A stretch of DNA of 35,613 nt, from the UHGV virus genome UHGV-0122175, one strand, 5' to 3'. Under the pieces are notes generated by a model. The model was not told where the DNA came from. It searched no databases and was given only the letters and a program-made list of their open reading frames with translations. Position 1 is the first letter of the stretch. The number at the start of each line of letters is the position of its first letter. The DNA is from a virus. The translations under genes were made by a program, and so were the position numbers. Below, piece by piece: positions 50-31,420 of the stretch.

Positions 50-1042
50 CTAATCGATGGACAGTTTATGGACACTTTCAGCCAGCGGATTAAAGTTGAT
101 CGCGTCCTGTAAGAAGTCCGGCGAAAAATGAGCGTACGTCATTGTTTGCTGAATCGTTGCGTGCCCCAGGATTCGTTGCAACGTAACAATATTTCCGCCA
201 TTCATCATAAAGTGTGTGGCAAATGTATGACGCATGACATGCGTAGCCTGCCCCTTCGGCAAATCCGGTTTCACCTCCTGAAGAATCTCCCGGAACTTCA
301 GATAATCAACCTGATACAATAACCCCGTTCGACGGGTTTTAATCAGAGGCACGACCGAATCCGCCACAGGAACCGAACGGGATTTTCCGTTTTTGGTGTT
401 AAAGAACGTCACCCGGTTGCCAACGATATGCTCTCCACGTAGTTCCGATGCTTCACTCCATCGGGCACCAGTAGAAAGACACAGAATGGCAACACGACGC
501 GCATCACCCTCCAGTCGCTCAAGAAGCCGTTCAATCTCATCATCAGAAAGAAAGGCCATCTCTGTGTTCTGAACTTTCAGTTTTCGTATACCGCGTACAG
601 GGTTCGCGTTGTGAAAGACCTCAGCTTCAATCAGCACCGTGAACATGGTAGACAGTACGCATAAGTCACGATTAATACTGGACGGCATTAATCCGGCCTG
701 TAATTTCTCTGACCGATATTCAAGCATAAATTTTCGCGTCATCTGACTGGCGCGAGGATCTCCCATTTCACGAACAACCTTCCCTAGCCTAACCCTGTAG
801 CTATCCCCGTAAGCCTGATTACGCCCATCAAGCATCCACCACGCATCAAGCAGCTCTGATAATCGCCGCTGATCAGCTGGCTTAGCCTGCCATGGCTTGT
901 CATGAAAGTTCTGTAACACATACTTCTCAAACTCCTGAGCCTTTGATTTCAGGGCAAAGATTTTTCGAATCCGCTTTCCTTCCGCCCCCTGCGGTCTGAC
1001 ATCGACCTGATAACGTCCGTCTTTGAGTTGCTTAATCGACAT
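50..1042 (-). CDS. int: Phage integrase, tyrosine recombinase (P2 Int-like)
   Basis: 330-aa ORF at the left edge, immediately downstream of the repressor gene on the same strand as in P2 (C then int). C-terminal region (HVMRHTFATHFMMNGGNIVTLQRILGHATIQQTMTYAHF) fits the tyrosine-recombinase catalytic domain. Confidence 0.9.
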   Translation of the reverse strand: MSIKQLKDGRYQVDVRPQGAEGKRIRKIFALKSKAQEFEKYVLQNFHDKPWQAKPADQRRLSELLDAWWMLDGRNQAYGDSYRVRLGKVVREMGDPRASQMTRKFMLEYRSEKLQAGLMPSSINRDLCVLSTMFTVLIEAEVFHNANPVRGIRKLKVQNTEMAFLSDDEIERLLERLEGDARRVAILCLSTGARWSEASELRGEHIVGNRVTFFNTKNGKSRSVPVADSVVPLIKTRRTGLLYQVDYLKFREILQEVKPDLPKGQATHVMRHTFATHFMMNGGNIVTLQRILGHATIQQTMTYAHFSPDFLQDAINFNPLAESVHKLSID

Positions 1043-1111: not shown

Positions 1112-1453
1112 TCAGCCAACATTGCGGCCTGATCGGGGTGATTTTTGGGTAATACCGATTGAAACCTGATCGCCCTCCGACTGAATAGAGCCATCAAGAG
1201 AGAGAGCCGGAGCAACCTGCCCGGCAGCGGGAAATGTTTTGTCGTGAAGTATCCACATAGTGTATTTTTCGAATCGCTCGACTTGGATTACTTTTTCTAC
1301 AACCTCAATGCGCGCAGGTTTATATCCAGACTCATAATTTCCTATAGTCCCTACAGAAACCCCCGTTACTTGCGAAAACTGAGATTGTGTAAGTTTTTCC
1401 GCATTTCTGATCGCCTTTAGTTTTTTGGCGTAATCTCTTGACATGTTCACCAT
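1112..1453 (-). CDS. C: Immunity repressor, P2 C-type (HTH)
   Basis: 113-aa ORF with a helix-turn-helix (LTQSQFSQVTGVSVGTIGNYESG). The tail (FEKYTMWILHDK...GQVAPAL) resembles P2 C as I recall it. It is divergent from the Cox-like gene. The true start may be the internal Met at codon 4. Confidence 0.75.
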   Translation of the reverse strand: MVNMSRDYAKKLKAIRNAEKLTQSQFSQVTGVSVGTIGNYESGYKPARIEVVEKVIQVERFEKYTMWILHDKTFPAAGQVAPALSLDGSIQSEGDQVSIGITQKSPRSGRNVG

Positions 1454-4823: not shown

Positions 4824-5119
4824 GCACCATCAACCACCAGGAACTACGCGAACTGGCGACTGACCTGCAACGAATGGCAACGCATCAAAAATTACTGGCG
4901 TTTCGCGCAATGCTCTCGCCGTCTGCTGTGCTGGCACTGCTGGATGAGCTGGAGCACGCCAGAACCATGGCTCCAGCCATTCGCCTGACGCTCCATCATG
5001 AAATCGCTGATTTCTGCGCGACGTTGGAGGCGCCGGGCGAACCGGAAACGCCGGAAGCAATACAGCAAGAGCTGCTGCAACGCATTGACAAGGTTTTTGA
5101 TTTTTTTCTGAACCAGTAA
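4820..5119 (+). CDS. Hypothetical early-region protein
   Basis: 99-aa ORF, start overlaps the upstream stop. Predicted helical. Confidence 0.55.
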   Translation: MSTINHQELRELATDLQRMATHQKLLAFRAMLSPSAVLALLDELEHARTMAPAIRLTLHHEIADFCATLEAPGEPETPEAIQQELLQRIDKVFDFFLNQ

Positions 5120-6116: not shown

Positions 6117-8939
6117 ATGACGGCAGAGTACATCAGGGACTGGCAGCAACCGCGCCACGCAGTGGGGCGTGAAGGAACGGGGATCCCCGCTCCTGAATCC
6201 GCGCTTTCCTCCTGGCTGGATGCCTACCGGGTAGAGAACGAACGCCGCCAGGAAATGGCTGATGCGGCGTTCTCCACCACGCCGCTGGGCAACCTGATTA
6301 ATAAAAGCCTGGACGCACAGGAAAAACAGGACAAAACCATCACACTGGCAGGAGACGCCAGAAAACAGGCACGCGGCGCGGTGGATGAAGCCATGGCCTC
6401 GCTGCGCCTGCTGCCGTCCTATCTACGCGATCCGCTTATTCGCCACCTCTCCTTCCTGCGCAAAAAACAGGAAGCCGATCGCCGGAAAGGCGAAAAGAGC
6501 TGGCAGGCGGAGCGCTATGCACGCGGAACCCTGCGCAAAATATTCGAACGTCTGGATCGCACTGACGGACGCTGGCTGACACCGGGGTATCGCTCCCTTG
6601 CCGGACGCGAACACCTGGACGATTTGCTGTACCTGCCGCAGCTCAACAAACACCAGATACAGACGCTGGCCACCATGACGGCGGCGATGTTCAGCAGCAC
6701 CTTCGAAAAACTCTGCGATGGCTTTGGCGCGACTGATGGCGAACTGACCATGGATGTAACGCTGAAGGCGTATCAGATGCTGGCCCGCATGGCGTTACAC
6801 CTGCACGCCATGCCTCCACATTATGACGCACTGACAACAGACAAAGACCGGAGGAACGAACCGGACACAGAGCTGCTGCCGGGCGCAATCCTTCGCCTGA
6901 CCTGTGCGGAATGGTGGAAACGCAAACTGTGGCTGTTACGTTGCGAGTGGAGAGAAGAACAACTCCGCGCCGCCTGTCTGGTTTCCAGAAAAACATCGCC
7001 CTATCTGAGCCAGGACGCGTTAAGCGAGTTTCGCGCACAGCGCGAGAAAACACGCGATTTCCTGAAAAGTTTCATGCTGGAAAATGAAGACGGGTTCACG
7101 ATTGATCTTGAGACAGTGTATTACGCGGGAGTAAGTAACCCGGTTCACCGTAAGGCAGAAATGATGGCCACCATGAAGGGGCTGGAACTTCTGGCCGAAG
7201 CCCGTGGCGACAAAGCGGTGTTTCTGACTGTCACCTGCCCGTCAAAATACCACGCCACAACAGAGAACGGTCATCCGAATCCCAAATGGAACGGGGCCAC
7301 CATGCGCGACTCCAGCGATTACCTGGTTAACACGTTTTTTGCGGCGGTCCGCAAGAAACTGAACCGCGACGGCCTGCGCTGGTATGGCATCCGCACGGTG
7401 GAGCCTCACCATGACGGCACCGTGCACTGGCATATGATGGTCTTTGCTCATCCGGAAGAAATCGACACCATTGTGTCCCACACCCGCGATATTGCCATTC
7501 AGGAAGATCGTCACGAGCTGGGCGATGATATTACTCCGCGCTTTAAGGCGGAGTATGTCGACGGCTCAAAAGGCACGCCAACCAGCTACATCGCCACCTA
7601 CATCGGAAAAAACCTGGACAGCCGCGCCGTGGATGGCATCGACCCGAAAACGGGCAAGCCACGCGTTGACCACGAAACCGGAAAATCAATGGCCGAGAGC
7701 GTGGAGCGCGCCATCGGCTGGGCGCGCCTTCACCGGGTCCGCCAGTTCCAGTTCTTTGGCATCCCCTCCCGTCAGGTGTGGCGTGAACTGCGCCGCCTTG
7801 CCAGCCAGATGGCACGCAACCCGGAAGGCCCGCAACGGCTGAAGGATGACGCAATGGATGCAGTGCTCGCTGCCGCTGATGCCGGGTGTTTTGCCTCCTA
7901 CATTGAAAAACAGGGCGGCGTACTTGTTCCACGCAAAGACTACCTGATTCGCACCGCCTACGACCTCGCAGATGAGCTGAACGATTACGGCGAACAGAGC
8001 GTACAGATTTACGGGATCTGGTCACCACTCATCGGGGAGTCTTCCCGTGTGTGCACACATCCGGATAACTGGAAGCTGGTAAGACGTAAACCGGAAGCGG
8101 AAGACAGCGCCCGCGAAAATGGTTTTGACCTTCAGGGCGGCCCTGCCGCCCCTTGGACTCGTGGCAATAACTGTCCCCGTGTACAGGAAACGGACAACAA
8201 CGGGACAGAACAGCCGGAAGAACGGCCAGCACCGTGGCCGCAGCTCCCTGACGGCGTTGAAGTGAACGAATGGATGCGCTCACTGAAACGGCACGAACGC
8301 CGGGCGCTGATGCGTTCGCTTCGTGACAAACAGGCAAAAAACAGCCGTGATGAAATGCAGAGCTGGACACAGAGCCGCAAACAGCAGCGGCCTTTGCCTG
8401 ATAACCACGAACTACTCGCTAAAGAATGGCGGGAGTCTGCTGAATCTCTCGGCCTGCATATCGGTGAACAGCAGATGCAGCACCTGTTACGGGGCGGCAG
8501 TCTGTACGTTGACGGCAGCAACATTGCACCGCAGGGATTTGAAATTGTACGCAAACCGGATACCCGACCGGACAGCCGGATCACGCAGCTCTGGCAGCGC
8601 CTGAGCCGTAACCACGGCGTAAGCAGTACGGAGATCCGCCATAACCCGGTCGCCAGCTATCTGGAACAGCTGGGGACATCAGACCCCGAAGCCGCCGCAC
8701 GCCTGGCATCCACACTTCAGCAAGACCAGAACACCATGAAAACACCCGTTACCGTGCTTTCTGACATGCTGCGCGCCATCCGCGACGCAGAGCACGCACA
8801 GAGAATCAGTGAAACCACTGAACGCGCCCGCCGCAAAGCAGACCTGCTGCGGGGTGGCCTGACCAGTGGAAACAAAAAACAGACAGAAACGGGATTCACA
8901 AATCCCGTAAATGAGCAAAAAACGCGCCGCGATATATGA
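6117..8939 (+). CDS. A: Replication initiation protein A (rolling-circle, HUH-type nickase)
   Basis: 940-aa ORF at the end of the early operon. Contains a His-hydrophobic-His motif (TVHWHMMVFAH) and a paired-tyrosine motif (YIATYIGKN) characteristic of phiX174/P2 A-type initiators. Confidence 0.85.
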   Translation: MTAEYIRDWQQPRHAVGREGTGIPAPESALSSWLDAYRVENERRQEMADAAFSTTPLGNLINKSLDAQEKQDKTITLAGDARKQARGAVDEAMASLRLLPSYLRDPLIRHLSFLRKKQEADRRKGEKSWQAERYARGTLRKIFERLDRTDGRWLTPGYRSLAGREHLDDLLYLPQLNKHQIQTLATMTAAMFSSTFEKLCDGFGATDGELTMDVTLKAYQMLARMALHLHAMPPHYDALTTDKDRRNEPDTELLPGAILRLTCAEWWKRKLWLLRCEWREEQLRAACLVSRKTSPYLSQDALSEFRAQREKTRDFLKSFMLENEDGFTIDLETVYYAGVSNPVHRKAEMMATMKGLELLAEARGDKAVFLTVTCPSKYHATTENGHPNPKWNGATMRDSSDYLVNTFFAAVRKKLNRDGLRWYGIRTVEPHHDGTVHWHMMVFAHPEEIDTIVSHTRDIAIQEDRHELGDDITPRFKAEYVDGSKGTPTSYIATYIGKNLDSRAVDGIDPKTGKPRVDHETGKSMAESVERAIGWARLHRVRQFQFFGIPSRQVWRELRRLASQMARNPEGPQRLKDDAMDAVLAAADAGCFASYIEKQGGVLVPRKDYLIRTAYDLADELNDYGEQSVQIYGIWSPLIGESSRVCTHPDNWKLVRRKPEAEDSARENGFDLQGGPAAPWTRGNNCPRVQETDNNGTEQPEERPAPWPQLPDGVEVNEWMRSLKRHERRALMRSLRDKQAKNSRDEMQSWTQSRKQQRPLPDNHELLAKEWRESAESLGLHIGEQQMQHLLRGGSLYVDGSNIAPQGFEIVRKPDTRPDSRITQLWQRLSRNHGVSSTEIRHNPVASYLEQLGTSDPEAAARLASTLQQDQNTMKTPVTVLSDMLRAIRDAEHAQRISETTERARRKADLLRGGLTSGNKKQTETGFTNPVNEQKTRRDI
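8889..8908. repeat. 20-bp palindrome ACGGGATT-n4-AATCCCGT (copy 1, inside the 3' end of A)
   Basis: Perfect 8-bp inverted arms, read directly from the sequence. Confidence 0.6.
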
Positions 8940-8961
8940 AGCGCGCATAAAACAGGCAAAA

Positions 8962-8981
8962 ACGGGATTTCAGAATCCCGT
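8962..8981. repeat. 20-bp palindrome ACGGGATT-n4-AATCCCGT (copy 2, upstream of parM-like gene)
   Basis: Same arms as copy 1. Centres are 73 bp apart, about seven helical turns. Confidence 0.6.
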
Positions 8982-9015
8982 AAACGATTAATTAATCAAC
9001 ATAAGGAAAAGCGAC

Positions 9016-9975
9016 ATGAAAATTTGTATCGATGACGGCTCCACCAACATCAAGCTGGCATGGACTGAGAACGGCGAACGCCGCAACGCCATCAGCCCAA
9101 ACAGCTTCAAGTCGGAATGGTCTGCGCCGTTCGGTGGCACGCAGCCCGCGAACTACATGCTTGATGGCGTGCGCTATGGTTTTGATCCGGTCAGCGATCG
9201 CTTTGTCCAGACGACCGACACGCAATACCAGTACAGCGATGTGAATGTCATTGCCATTCATCACGCGCTGGTCAAATCAGGCATCACACCACAGGAAGTG
9301 GATGTGGTTGTCACCCTGCCACTGAGCGAATATTTCGACACAAACGCACAGCCGGACATGGCCAACATCAACCGCAAAAAAGCGAACGTTATGCGCCCGG
9401 TGGAGTACCAGAACGGCGAAGCATTCACTATCCGTAACGTGCGGGTTATGCCTGAATCCATTCCGGCTGGCTTTAAGGCACTGGCTGACATGAGTCCGTT
9501 TGAATCCCTGCTGATTGTGGATTTGGGCGGAACCACGCTGGATGTGGCAAAGGTTCAGGGGCAACTGGCAGGTATCAGCCAGGTGTTTTGCGATCCACAC
9601 GTAGGCGTTTCTCTGATGGCCGATGCCGTACTGTCGGTGATGGCCACTAACGGTATGCGCACCAGTCACCACATCGCCAATACCATTATCGAACATCGCC
9701 ATGATGAAGCCTGGTTGCGCCAGCACATCCACAATGACGCGCATTACGCCAGCCTGATGGCGGTTATTCGTGAAAAGGAAGAAACACTGAAACAACGAGT
9801 GATCCGCGCGCTGGCGGGGTTTTCGGGTTACGGGCGGGTGATGGTTGTCGGTGGCGGGGCGGAGATTGTGGCACCCGCTATCCGCGAAGCCTGCGGAGTT
9901 AATGCGACTTTCATCGCGGACGGGGTGCCACAGTTTGCTCTGGTTAATGGGCTGTACGCAATGGACAAGGAGTAA
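9016..9975 (+). CDS. parM: Actin-like segregation ATPase, ParM/StbA family
   Basis: 319 aa. N-terminus MKICIDDGSTNIKLAW closely matches the plasmid R1 ParM N-terminus as I recall it (MLVFIDDGSTNIKLQW). Also has the actin-fold phosphate motif IVDLGGTTLD and C-terminal VMVVGGGAE. Strong AAGGAA ribosome-binding site. Confidence 0.8.
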   Translation: MKICIDDGSTNIKLAWTENGERRNAISPNSFKSEWSAPFGGTQPANYMLDGVRYGFDPVSDRFVQTTDTQYQYSDVNVIAIHHALVKSGITPQEVDVVVTLPLSEYFDTNAQPDMANINRKKANVMRPVEYQNGEAFTIRNVRVMPESIPAGFKALADMSPFESLLIVDLGGTTLDVAKVQGQLAGISQVFCDPHVGVSLMADAVLSVMATNGMRTSHHIANTIIEHRHDEAWLRQHIHNDAHYASLMAVIREKEETLKQRVIRALAGFSGYGRVMVVGGGAEIVAPAIREACGVNATFIADGVPQFALVNGLYAMDKE

Positions 9976-9979
9976 ACCA

Positions 9980-10294
9980 ATGACGACTCCAACCAGACGG
10001 ATAAGTTTCTATCTGAAGCCAGCAGCCGTCAAGAGTGAACGAGAAGCGTGTAATTATCTCGACAGCCTGCCAGCCTCCGAACGCAGCCGCGCGCAACGCG
10101 CGGCATTTCTGGCTGGACTGGCGCTTATTAAAAGCGATCCCGCCTTTGCTTACTGGCTGGCTGAATGGCAGGAAGAGGAAGCAATACCACCAAGAAATAA
10201 CATCCGAAACAAGCATACTGGCACATCTGCAACAGAAAACAGTCACAGTAAGAGCCAGTTAAAAAGGAACATTCAGGAGTTTTTCCCAGAATAA
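9980..10294 (+). CDS. parR: ParR-like centromere-binding adaptor
   Basis: 105 aa from ATG 9980, with AAGGAG upstream, directly after parM. The segment YLDSLPASERSRAQRAAFLAGLAL resembles R1 ParR (LDSIPQGERSRLNRAALTAGLAL, from memory). Confidence 0.65.
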   Translation: MTTPTRRISFYLKPAAVKSEREACNYLDSLPASERSRAQRAAFLAGLALIKSDPAFAYWLAEWQEEEAIPPRNNIRNKHTGTSATENSHSKSQLKRNIQEFFPE

Positions 10295-10300
10295 CCTACA

Positions 10301-10325
10301 AACACCCTTCACGGGTGTTTTTTCA
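10301..10325 (+). terminator. Intrinsic terminator after the parMR-like operon
   Basis: AACACCC-ttcac-GGGTGTT stem followed by TTTTTT. Confidence 0.6.
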
Positions 10326-10339
10326 TGTTTACCCTAATA

Positions 10340-10381
10340 ATCGATCTGTTAAACAGATAGATATTGATTTATCTATCGATT
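10340..10381. promoter_or_regulatory. Operator-like cluster of palindromes upstream of the orphan genes
   Basis: ATCTGTT-A-AACAGAT and ATAGATA-n6-TATCTAT inverted repeats, bracketed by ATCGAT. A TTGACA -35-like hexamer follows at 10398..10403. Confidence 0.3.
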
Positions 10382-10470
10382 AAAACGATCAATACCCTTG
10401 ACAGTTGTATGGGATTTTGTAGGATCGATCACGATATGACCACTTTGTTTGTGTGTCATGCATAGGAAAA

Positions 10471-10498
10471 CGCCCCAATAGCGGTAACTATTGGGGCG
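10471..10498. other. Perfect 11-bp stem-loop
   Basis: CGCCCCAATAG-cggtaa-CTATTGGGGCG. On the minus strand it is followed by TTTTCC, which looks like a terminator. On the plus strand it would sit in the 5' UTR of the 10604 gene. Confidence 0.35.
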
Positions 10499-10603
10499 CC
10501 AAAGAAATCGAGGTGTCATCTACCTCTTGAGCTCGCCGGAATCGTATTTTCTGCGTGTGCCCATGTAAAGGTGAACACCTCATTTTATTGAGGTAAATCA
10601 AAT

Positions 10604-28576: not shown

Positions 28577-31420
28577 TCAATCTTTATCGTAAAAACTGCC
28601 ACGTCCGGCACGGGCGCGCCGTTCCATTTCTGCCCTGACCATTTCACCGACCAGTTTCGCCAGTTCGCGGGGATTCTGTGTAACGACGTTATGCAGATGA
28701 ACATGAATTTCACCGCCAAATCCTGAGGCAACAGGCTCCCGGTTACGGGAAGTTACAGGAACTGATGCCACTGGAGATCGTATGGCCTCCGCCACCGGGC
28801 GGGAGCTGGCCGCAACAACAGGGACCAGCGCCGGAGGCAGCGGAGCCGGGACCACGGGTGTGATATTAATTGCGGGGGCAGGCTTACTGACCTGCGCAAT
28901 CTTCCGCTCCTGCCACTCCCCACGAACAGCAAGTGCGCGGGGCAGGTTCTTAAAGACAATATCGCCGGGGCCAATGCGTTTTTTCGTCTCATCAACCAGC
29001 TTACCTGTGTTATCAGCAATTTTGCTGAGTCTGCGCAGCGTACCAGTATTGCTGTCTGTGAGCGGTTTATTGTCTTTGGGGTTATCACCTCCGGTGCCAT
29101 TGCCATTTTCTACAGGCTTCGGCGGATTGATTTTCGCCAGGTCCCCCTGAAGCAAGGCAACCTTGTCCTGAAGAATGGCCGCACGCTGTGCGTCTTCGAT
29201 TTTCTTTCTCGCCCTTTCCGCTTCATCCGGAAGAACACCGAGTTTTTCAAGTATCCACGCCAGCGTATCCAGCAACATTTTTGCAGGCGTCAGAACAAGC
29301 TGTAACGCGCCACCAAGAACGTTACCGAATATCTCGCCAGCACTGGTACATTTATCCAGCGTTTCCTTGCTGGACTCCATCGGTGACAGCAGCGATTTAA
29401 ACCAGTTAAACACCTGGCTGATCCCGCTTCCGATTGCGTCAAAAACAGGGCCAAACCGTTCAAAGGTTTCACGCAACGGGTTCAGCCTTTCCATAATCCC
29501 GTTGAACACCCCGGCATAAAACGCCTTAATGGGTTCCCAGTATTTCCAGATGAGAACCGCCGCAGCCACAAACGCAGCGGCAATCAATCCGACCGGACTG
29601 AACAGCGCCCCGATAGCGCCTCCCAGTAAAGAAACGGAACCCGTCACCATTCCCCATAGTGCTGGCAGGACCCTGACAGCATTCATTGATCCGGTCAGGA
29701 GAGAAAAACCAAGACGCAGTTTTGCCAGCGGGCCAGCAAGCACACCAATAGCCAGCGACAACGAGCCAACCGTTGCAGTCATTGCCAGCAACGCACCGCC
29801 TGCTATCAGTAGCTGGCGCGTCAGTGCCGGATGGGCCTGCGCCAGCGCCGTCACCCTTGATACCACCCGCGTGAGCCACTGCGTGACAGAACGCAGCGGA
29901 CCGTCAATCAGATCTGCAATGCGGATGCGCAACCCTTCCCATGCACTGCCGAGTGATTTCAGATCGCCGTCAAGGTTGTTGGCCATAACCTTTGCTGTGC
30001 GTTCAGCCTCACCGCGCGCGCCTTCAAGTTCTTTTCTCAGTTTGGGTAAGGAACCGTCACCCGCTGCATCAACGAGCGCCATAAACGATGTGAAAGCCTC
30101 TTCTCCGGCAATGTCCTTAAAGAACGATACCCGGTCAACTTCCCCGTATTTGCGGGTGGCTTTATAAAGGTCGGCCAGCACATCCTCCATCGGGCGCATT
30201 TTGCCGTTCGCGTCAGAGACTGCCACACCAAGCTCTTTCAGAGCTTCTGCCGCCGCCTTTGGCGGTGATGCCAGACGAGCCAGGCTGGCACGCATTGCCG
30301 TCCCGGCATCACTCCCTCTGATACCCATATTCGCCAGCACGCCCGCCATCGCTGCGGCCTGCTCCAGCGATATCCCCAGCTTGCCCGCCACCGGACCTGC
30401 ATATTTCATGGTTTCGCCCAGTGCGCGAAGGTCAGTGTTGGTACGGGTAAACGCTGCGGTGAGCGTGTCGCCAACCCGGTCCATCTGGTCAGCAGAAAGG
30501 CCGAACTGCGTCAGGATATTTGAGCCAATATCCGCCGTCTCGCCGAGATCCATGCCGCCAGCCGTTGCCATGCTCAGCACGCCCGGAAGCGCAGCCTGAA
30601 TGGCCTGCGGTGTGAAGCCAGCCATTGCAAGAAATGCCTGCCCACTGGCGGCATCGCCTGCGGTGAACTGCGTTTCAGAGCCAAGTTTTAACGCCTGCTC
30701 ACGCAGCGCCTTAAACTGCGGGCTGTTTTTGTCGATTCGCGTCAGTGCCTGAACGCGGGACATCTCTTTCCCGAACCCGATCGCAGGCTGCAAAAAACGC
30801 CCGGCAGCATAGCCGCCAGCCGCTGCCGCACCAATTGCCAGCGCACCACCTGTTTTCAGTTTTCCCGCTGTTTCCTGCGCGCGCGAATACCGCTCACGCG
30901 CCCGCGTTACACGCGCAAGCGCCTGCCGTTCGCGTTCAAGCTGGTTGTTGTACTGTTCGGTGCGTCTGATGGCCTGCTGGATGGTGTTATCGCTGCCTGT
31001 CAGGGAAATGCCGTGGCGTTTCAGCTCTCCGCCAAGCTCCCGCATTTTCTGAATTTCCCGTGTACGCGATTCATTCAGGCGTTCAAGCCGGGTGCTTAAC
31101 TGCTGCATCAGCTTTTGTTGTTTTTCGCTGAGCACTGTACCCGTGCGTTGTAACTGATTAAGGGCGTTAAGCTGGCGTCGTGCTTTCACGATGCCCGCAT
31201 CCGCTTTACTGACAGCGTCGCGGGCGCGCTCAAATGATCGCGCCTGACGCTCGAGATTTTTGATCGCCCCCTGCGTTCGCTGGATGGAGTCACCAAACTG
31301 CCCCATCAGGCGGCGGGCGTTTTCGGCAGGTCGGGTCAGCCTGTCAACGGCGCTGAAAGCGACCCGGATATCAAGAGTCTTCATTGTCTGCATTCCCGCT
31401 GCGAAGTGCCGCCCGCTCAC
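28577..31420 (-). CDS. T: Tail tape measure protein (P2 T-like)
   Basis: 947 aa with a coiled-coil N-terminal third and a Gly/Ala-rich hydrophobic core. Located after the E/E' chaperone pair. Confidence 0.85.
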   Translation of the reverse strand: MSGRHFAAGMQTMKTLDIRVAFSAVDRLTRPAENARRLMGQFGDSIQRTQGAIKNLERQARSFERARDAVSKADAGIVKARRQLNALNQLQRTGTVLSEKQQKLMQQLSTRLERLNESRTREIQKMRELGGELKRHGISLTGSDNTIQQAIRRTEQYNNQLERERQALARVTRARERYSRAQETAGKLKTGGALAIGAAAAGGYAAGRFLQPAIGFGKEMSRVQALTRIDKNSPQFKALREQALKLGSETQFTAGDAASGQAFLAMAGFTPQAIQAALPGVLSMATAGGMDLGETADIGSNILTQFGLSADQMDRVGDTLTAAFTRTNTDLRALGETMKYAGPVAGKLGISLEQAAAMAGVLANMGIRGSDAGTAMRASLARLASPPKAAAEALKELGVAVSDANGKMRPMEDVLADLYKATRKYGEVDRVSFFKDIAGEEAFTSFMALVDAAGDGSLPKLRKELEGARGEAERTAKVMANNLDGDLKSLGSAWEGLRIRIADLIDGPLRSVTQWLTRVVSRVTALAQAHPALTRQLLIAGGALLAMTATVGSLSLAIGVLAGPLAKLRLGFSLLTGSMNAVRVLPALWGMVTGSVSLLGGAIGALFSPVGLIAAAFVAAAVLIWKYWEPIKAFYAGVFNGIMERLNPLRETFERFGPVFDAIGSGISQVFNWFKSLLSPMESSKETLDKCTSAGEIFGNVLGGALQLVLTPAKMLLDTLAWILEKLGVLPDEAERARKKIEDAQRAAILQDKVALLQGDLAKINPPKPVENGNGTGGDNPKDNKPLTDSNTGTLRRLSKIADNTGKLVDETKKRIGPGDIVFKNLPRALAVRGEWQERKIAQVSKPAPAINITPVVPAPLPPALVPVVAASSRPVAEAIRSPVASVPVTSRNREPVASGFGGEIHVHLHNVVTQNPRELAKLVGEMVRAEMERRARAGRGSFYDKD

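Follow-up and report, generated by a model that had tools for sequence, protein, structure and literature searches.

Two 20-bp palindromes lie 73 bp apart, measured start to start, at the junction between the replication gene A and the segregation genes parM and parR of the viral genome UHGV-0122175, a stretch of 35,613 nucleotides which is referred to below, at its full length, as the window. Comparison of related loci indicates that ParR is fairly likely to bind these palindromes, which would act as the centromere, parC, of a type II (ParMRC) partition cassette carried by the phage. They are probably also the operator of the par cassette. A sequence-only reading of the same DNA had proposed that the pair might be a centromere, a replication origin, or both. 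The centromere part of this proposal gains support from the comparison of sites, spacing and ParR strand in three lineages, and the origin part falls away. The window DNA is 96-98% identical to phage P88 and to other Xuanwuvirus records (P2-like Peduoviridae), and it is classified as a P88-like (Xuanwuvirus, P2-like) prophage of Escherichia coli.

Paired sites at the head of the par genes

Two copies of ACGGGATT-n4-AATCCCGT, one at the end of A and one before parM, had been noticed earlier, and reading of the sequence confirms both the copies and the distance between them (coordinates are collected in Table 1). Site 1 falls inside the final codons of A, whose 3′ end reads through it, and site 2 belongs to the A-parM intergenic region, where 34 nt separate its end from the parM ATG at 9016. 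Each dyad is made of two inverted AAWCCC half-sites with CCC cores 13 bp apart, which gives four half-sites in total. The dyads are the cores of a 42-nt direct repeat; between its two copies the arm bases are identical at 16/16 positions, the 4-nt spacers at 0/4, and the flanks at 18/22, and the left edge of the first copy is the left boundary of the par module. When up to three mismatches are allowed, these two are the only matches to the dyad in the 35.6-kb window; the chance expectation is 0.10, and two or more matches were obtained in 0/100 shuffles. As in a parC, the pair is placed directly upstream of the parM-parR operon and is built of repeated units, namely the two 20-bp units in the 42-nt repeat with their four AAWCCC half-sites. 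Regular R1-like iterons with 11-bp phasing were not seen by eye across 8870-8990.

P2-like prophages of Hafnia (locus L008) and Plesiomonas (locus L011) encode a ParM that is 62-63% identical to that of the window, and their par genes are likewise located downstream of A. In the DNA upstream of parM, the stretches that could be matched to the window are 39-54% identical (ungapped) and the 8-bp stems have diverged, but two GGG-n10-CCC sites are retained at the head of the par genes in both loci. The offsets of the sites from the parM ATG are -129/-56 in Hafnia, -132/-60 in Plesiomonas, and -126/-53 in the E. coli relative L211. The sequence between the sites has also diverged across genera, with its length kept (56-57 nt from the CCC of site 1 to the GGG of site 2). 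Each locus contains one GGG-n10-CCC pair spaced 70-75 bp and no other, and such a pair appears in 0-3 of 200,000 shuffles of the 200-nt upstream sequence. When six sequences are aligned, the invariant columns cluster in GGGA, A.CCC, CGGG, CCC, ATTAAT, and the ribosome-binding site; the consensus of 12 half-sites, aligned by eye on their CCC, is AAWCCCR. Judging from these alignments, constraint acts across genera on the GGG/CCC cores and on the distance between them. The same result bears on the idea that recombination at the cassette boundary left the pair behind as a local duplication without function. The two copies do belong to a 42-nt direct repeat at a module junction, but cores and spacing are kept in three genera despite the diverged surroundings, and a mere duplication is regarded as very improbable.

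A scan of genome contigs with ParM returned three near-identical loci only. From a scan of viral contigs with a ParM alignment, 80 loci were kept, all of them P88-like and 99-100% identical, which inform on variation within the group and not on divergence. The pattern GGG-n10-CCC / 55-59 / GGG-n10-CCC / TTAATCAA gave P88-like matches only in the viral contigs; when a gap of 14-22 nt was set to exclude these, the same architecture was found in 0 viral contigs and in 26 metagenome contigs. ParM or ParR is encoded in 0/26 of the metagenome contigs, which were therefore rejected as chance matches.

The sequence-only reading had named, together with a lack of binding by either protein, absence of the palindromes from close relatives carrying parMR as the finding that would speak against it. 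The comparison does not refute it: both palindromes are present in 95 of 97 distinct upstream sequences, which come from 204 P88-like loci carrying parMR. Among these 95 unique sequences, the site spacing is 73 bp in 92, 72 bp in two, and 74 bp in one, and the GGG and CCC are nearly invariant. A variant with a T-to-C change in site 1, ACGGGACT..AATCCCGT, occurs in 26/95, and GCGGGATT..AATCCTGT is also common. In the E. coli locus L049, CGGG is changed to CAGG in the left arms of both sites at once, and in three P88-like loci (L058 among the related loci cited) AATCCC is changed to AAACCC or AACCCC in both right arms. These paired substitutions hint at gene conversion between the copies or at joint selection; shared ancestry is also possible.

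Palindromes of this form could serve as RNA or DNA hairpins, either as two minus-strand terminators directed against antisense transcription into A or as plus-strand hairpins which stabilise or process the A-parM mRNA. In the window, both copies are called minus-strand terminator-like, with an 8-bp stem, a 4-nt loop, and a T-rich tail (TTTTTGCCTGTTTT or TTTCTGTCTGTTTTTT). They fold at -10.2 to -10.7 kcal/mol (z -4.4 to -7.0 against shuffles), and their stems are identical with different loops. However, only GGG/CCC is kept at the Hafnia and Plesiomonas sites; their folding energies are -4.2 to -8.4 kcal/mol (z -0.8 to -2.3), neither strand carries a U-tract, and no terminator is called there, so that the hairpin features are confined to the E. 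coli lineage. Arm changes are common in the 95 unique P88-like sequences and are compensated in none of them; moreover, the T-to-C change in site 1 and the A-to-G and C-to-T changes in site 2 would suit different strands. A terminator would also leave the conserved spacing of 72-73 bp unexplained, and Rfam has no match at either site. Hairpin formation is considered a quite unlikely function for the pair as a whole; a side role of this kind in the E. coli lineage is possible.

Association with parMR and position of the likely replication origin

Gene order in the related loci indicates that the paired sites stay with parMR and not with A. In Hafnia, a 167-residue open reading frame (ORF) other than A lies between A and parM, with site 1 in its 3′ end and site 2 across its stop codon. 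In the E. coli locus L049, A has 871 residues and its tail is replaced by a separate ORF of 155 residues that extends across site 1; downstream of this different ORF, the locus is homologous to the window from about 8867-8873 onwards, where the 42-nt unit has its left edge. The Hafnia-type locus L245 has the same two sites, followed by a 93-residue ORF, parM, and parR (orf93-parM-parR). Since an ORF is inserted here between the sites and parM, the sites head the operon and do not merely touch parM. In the same locus (1572-2041) the AT-rich leader and the ribosome-binding region are duplicated, one copy preceding orf93 and the other parM. A tblastn search of phages with the C-terminal extension of A returned P88-like records only, and no relative with the tail and without parMR was among them. 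In the P88-like prophage of E. coli CUVET19-1704 (L217, 3501-3720), a frameshifted ead/Ea22-like gene stands in place of parM-parR, with the breakpoint 5 nt past the A stop codon, and site 2 is lost.

The survival of site 1 in a prophage without parMR would suit a second explanation, in which expression at the junction of A and parM is controlled by some other protein bound to the sites, either a further phage regulator or a factor of the host. Many regulators that act as dimers typically have dyad-symmetric sites with a variable spacer, and the tie of the sites to ParR is a comparative one. Conversely, the motif occurs nowhere else in the 35.6-kb prophage, and its confinement to this pair means that it is not a general phage operator. 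To our knowledge, the dyad is unlike the sites of the P2 C repressor, Cox, Ogr (TGT-n12-ACA), LexA, and CRP. The motif is always found at the head of the par genes, and a different ParR beta-strand comes with a different type of site, as described below; control by such a regulator is judged unlikely.

The proposal of a replication origin starts from the fact that the origins of P2 and 186 are found in the 3′ part of A (P2 annotation), as is site 1, which lies within the 3′ end of the gene; the palindromes would then be part of a P2-type origin, nicked or bound by A. In P2, the nick site is at position 29892 of NC_001895, inside A (annotated in the record as "nick site at ori"). A comparison with mapped origins of related phages had been suggested, and in this comparison the P2 nick site aligns to 8135-8170 and not to the palindromes. 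The 36-nt P2 nick region matches this segment at 26/36 positions, and elsewhere in A the match is at most 19/36. The A proteins of the window and of P2 are about 31% identical, and P2 GIAAPRSPVNNC aligns with window GGPAAPWTRGNNC (AAPxxxxNNC segment). The P2 nick sequence itself (GCGCC and, after the nick, TCGGAGTCCTGTCAATAA) is not contained in the palindromes, and nothing comparable is present at 8889-8981; the homologue lies 720-800 bp upstream of the palindromes. The same nick motif, CCCCTTGGAC..G.CAATAA, recurs in A of four further P2-like prophages (Hafnia, Plesiomonas, Serratia, and Enterobacter), 343-805 bp before the stop codons, and hence its distance to the par sites is not fixed. 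The nick-site homologue is thereby kept at the DNA level in five P2-like A genes, with proteins that are only about 31% identical to P2 A. In addition, the paired sites follow parMR where the upstream ORF is not A. The suggestion that the palindromes are an origin is thus not supported and retains next to no likelihood. On the strength of the alignment, 8135-8170 is likely to be the replication origin of the prophage, separate from the palindromes. The A protein of the window has a C-terminal extension of about 180 residues relative to P2 A, which explains why a position in the 3′ part of A misled the earlier reading.

ParR strand, repeat type and proposed mechanism

In ribbon-helix-helix proteins, the DNA is read by the beta-strand. 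The lineages with paired dyads (E. coli, Hafnia, and Plesiomonas) all have the ParR strand TRR(I/V)SFYL. In the E. coli group it is TRRISFYLKP in 48/49 ParR variants and TRRISLYLKP in one; it is TRRVSFYLKP in Hafnia and TRRISFYLNP in Plesiomonas. Outside the strand, ParR identity falls to 52-69%. ParRs with the strand NRKISFYLKP (Serratia, Enterobacter, Lelliottia, and the metagenomic locus L247) are accompanied instead by a conserved long inverted repeat, GGGAACGATATAGAAAAAT...ATTTTTCTGTTTCGTTCCC. This element, found 150-60 nt upstream of parM in P2-like prophages (L012, L213, L246, and L247), consists of GGGAACGATATAGAAAAAT, 24 nt with an inner AGCCGGACGGCT palindrome, and ATTTTTCTGTTTCGTTCCC, followed by GTTTAAAC and a repeated TTTCATNACC; it is probably a centromere type of its own. 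The strand RRKILFYINP belongs to a non-prophage Pantoea locus beside a ParA-family gene, which has 3+3 11-bp TTTCTCT iterons around an apparent promoter, and RRTIAFKLNP belongs to R100, with the classic 5+5 AAAACCC iterons (PMC2241845). The C-terminal N-x4-F-P tail is kept in all ParRs compared, and in R1-type systems the C-terminal tail of ParR is the ParM-binding end (PMC5016525). ParR protein searches returned mostly E. coli variants, and a plasmid-borne ParR with the TRRISFYL strand was not found in them.

In P88-like prophages, ParM is 99-100% identical, versus at least 49 ParR variants with 48-94% overall identity. The first 16 or so and the last 8 or so residues of ParR are near-invariant, linker residues 65-95 are hypervariable, and two allele classes of the helices can be told apart, PASERSRAQRAA and TPEARKSGQRVA. 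Between records, DNA similarity breaks off within parR at about window position 10048 (window parR against L002 and L013-L092). The ParR allele class (S or T) showed no association with the site variants, which fits the identical beta-strand of both ParR classes.

From the comparison of loci, we infer that ParR binds the two dyads, and the stoichiometry, the looping, and the role in partition or autoregulation that follow are put forward on the same footing. One ribbon-helix-helix ParR dimer would occupy each AAWCCCR half-site, forming a dimer of dimers on each dyad. A distance of 73 bp corresponds to about seven helical turns, which would place both dyads on the same face of the helix. Bending or looping of the 53-bp spacer could bring two ParR complexes so oriented together into one assembly, in the manner of the split R1 parC. 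The conserved C-terminal ParR tails of this assembly would then capture and hold the end of a ParM filament.

Several observations weigh against the centromere reading. Among the P88-like sequences, conservation of the sites does not exceed that of the flanking DNA, so that this group alone does not discriminate. The window has four half-sites versus the ten iterons of R1, and all characterised ParRs bind direct repeats (PMC9426499), whereas the window half-sites are inverted. Scans of the window, Hafnia, and Plesiomonas sequences gave no sigma-70-like promoter at, between, or beside the sites; as no promoter is recognisable, an R1-style autoregulated promoter is not confirmed. The joint change of ParR strand and repeat type is drawn from few independent lineages, mostly P2-like prophages, and site 1 persists in CUVET19-1704 without parMR, though there it is part of the A coding sequence. 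As regards the small number of half-sites, it has been reported that the ParR of pB171 binds just two 10-bp repeats (PMC9426499), and a very small centromere therefore has precedent.

A broader proposal is that a complete working ParMRC machine with a minimal two-dyad centromere stands at the end of the P2-like early lytic operon in about a quarter of E. coli and serves the phage; this is doubtful and is advanced only tentatively. A phage ParMRC might drive circular phage genomes apart, or position them, once infection or induction has taken place. It might also engage in cross-talk with IncF-type plasmid centromeres, and the prophage would then encode a modulator of plasmid inheritance; this second idea derives from the resemblance of the AAWCCC half-site to the R1 iteron.

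Prophage context and comparison with characterised systems

The integrase and repressor genes of the window are followed by a long plus-strand block of early genes, in which parR is the last; the portal gene comes next, on the minus strand. The early operon ends with A, parM, parR, and a terminator. ParM matches the structure PDB 1MWK (E=9e-93), and the pB171 ParR structure 2JD3 (E=0.002) is the sole solved structure that matches the window ParR. The latter has the beta-strand TRRISFYLKP and a conserved C-terminal N-x4-FPE tail; its ORF begins at ATG 9980 and encodes 104 residues, which corrects the 105 given earlier. Both ParM and ParR look intact, and ParM is full length.

The hairpin directly after parR is likely to be the end of the A-parM-parR transcript. 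Along the plus strand, no terminator was called between A and parM, and only two weak hairpin matches, both inside parM, come before the strong terminator at 10300. With neither a terminator nor a recognisable promoter at the junction, the early promoter may drive parMR together with A. If so, parMR would be silent in lysogens, which would explain how the chromosome tolerates a centromere. The AT-rich element ATTAATCAA, between site 2 and the parM ribosome-binding site, is kept in E. coli, Salmonella, Hafnia (L008 4977-4985), and Plesiomonas (L011 4973-4981), the four groups in the six-sequence alignment in which its ATTAAT is invariant. The promoter scan made no promoter call at this element, which may be a -10 region or a leader element. 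Assignments of -35 and -10 elements made by hand did not agree between lineages and were discarded.

Downstream of parR, a 24-nt imperfect inverted repeat (ATCGATCTGTTAAACAGATAGATA / TATCTATCGATTAAAACGATCAAT) occupies 10340-10393 beside a promoter-like match at 10398-10425. The stretch 10464-10525 contains a perfect 11-bp hairpin at 10471-10498, with sub-threshold Rfam matches to minus-strand small antisense RNAs (NsiR1, sar, and ctRNA; E 0.003-0.3).

A search with window positions 8840-9140, which cover the junction of the A 3′ end, the sites, and parM, found this junction in 1304 of 5426 complete E. coli genomes (24%), O157:H7 and O103:H2 strains included. Up to three copies occur per genome, and 1441/1443 copies are chromosomal.

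Table 1. Positions of the paired sites, the par cassette and related features (window coordinates unless a locus is named).
Feature	Position	Strand	Description
Site 1	8889-8908		20-bp dyad ACGGGATT-caca-AATCCCGT, full ACGGGATTcacaAATCCCGT, core GGG-n10-CCC; candidate ParR binding site
Site 2	8962-8981		20-bp dyad ACGGGATT-tcag-AATCCCGT, full ACGGGATTtcagAATCCCGT; candidate ParR binding site
42-nt direct repeat unit, copy 1	8873-8914		A-rich flank, dyad and AAA; from repeat search
42-nt direct repeat unit, copy 2	8946-8987		81% identical to copy 1
Inter-site stretch	8909-8961		53 bp; contains A stop codon (8937-8939) and a short GC-rich inverted repeat
Hafnia L008 sites	4873-4888, 4946-4961		GGGATTGAGGAAACCC, GGGTTCATTAAATCCC; 73 bp apart
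Plesiomonas L011 sites	4870-4885, 4942-4957		GGGACAACAAAAACCC, GGGACAACACTAACCC; 72 bp apart
AT-rich element ATTAATCAA	8991-8999	+	Between site 2 and parM ribosome-binding site
parM	9016-9975	+	319 residues, actin-like segregation ATPase; Pfam StbA_N 1.8e-82, ParM C-terminal domain 1.3e-68
parR	9980-10294	+	104 residues, ribbon-helix-helix adaptor; Pfam Plasmid_stab_B 3.8e-26; R1 StbB family
Terminator-like hairpin with T-run	10300-10320	+	Directly after parR
Gene A	6117-8939	+	940 residues, P2-type rolling-circle replication initiator; Pfam Phage_GPA 2.1e-131; stop 8937-8939
P2 ori nick-site homologue	8135-8170	+	Predicted nick between C8152 and T8153
Integrase	50-1042	-	
Helix-turn-helix repressor	1112-1453	-	

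ParMRC is the textbook actin-like system for DNA segregation. No literature on a centromere in P88-like or P2-like phages was found, and the database records name the ParM and ParR genes only. Definition of the cis site makes it testable why an integrating P2-like phage keeps a plasmid partition machine. If the assignment is true, the four half-sites would also provide a very small defined substrate for structural work on the capping of the ParM filament by ParR. With the origin of P2, the pair shares a position in the 3′ half of A, and it differs in that the homologue of that origin is another sequence, 8135-8170, which the analysis also identifies as the likely origin of replication in these phages.

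The characterised type II centromeres of R1, pSK41, pB171, and pCW3 are located directly upstream of parM (PMC5016525, PMC2241845, PMC9426499). The window resembles R1 and R100 in this position, directly upstream of parM-parR, and in its arrangement as two blocks with an unbound spacer (39 bp in R1, 53 bp here). ParM is 47% identical to R100 ParM over its full length, and ParR shares 43% identity with R100 StbB across the ribbon-helix-helix domain (N-terminal 63 residues). The half-site AAWCCCR is comparable with the iteron core AAACCCA (R100 read directly and aligned by eye), and the ribosome-binding region CATAAGGA is similar. The differences from R1 concern both layout and context. In the parC of R1, which covers 159 bp, the par promoter is flanked by two sets of five 11-bp iterons, direct and in tandem, whereas the blocks of the window are single 20-bp dyads of inverted half-sites and no promoter is recognisable. 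Furthermore, the upstream gene of the window reads through the first block, and the cassette belongs to an integrated prophage and not to a plasmid.

The centromeres of pB171 and pSK41 are likewise bound by a ribbon-helix-helix ParR upstream of parM, and in pSK41 the units are of 20 bp with a dimer of dimers on each (PMC5016525, PMC9426499). Their repeats are direct and contiguous, whereas the 20-bp units of the window are palindromic and 73 bp apart. An operator dyad of about 20 bp bound by two ribbon-helix-helix dimers is classic for the fold, as in Arc, Mnt, and CopG. These are, however, pure transcriptional operators without a filament-forming partner, and the sites of the window are not claimed as members of this class. 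The layout of two isolated dyads with inverted half-sites differs from that of every characterised ParR centromere; if the centromere reading is true, the same ParR fold can work with a similar DNA word arranged in a different way.

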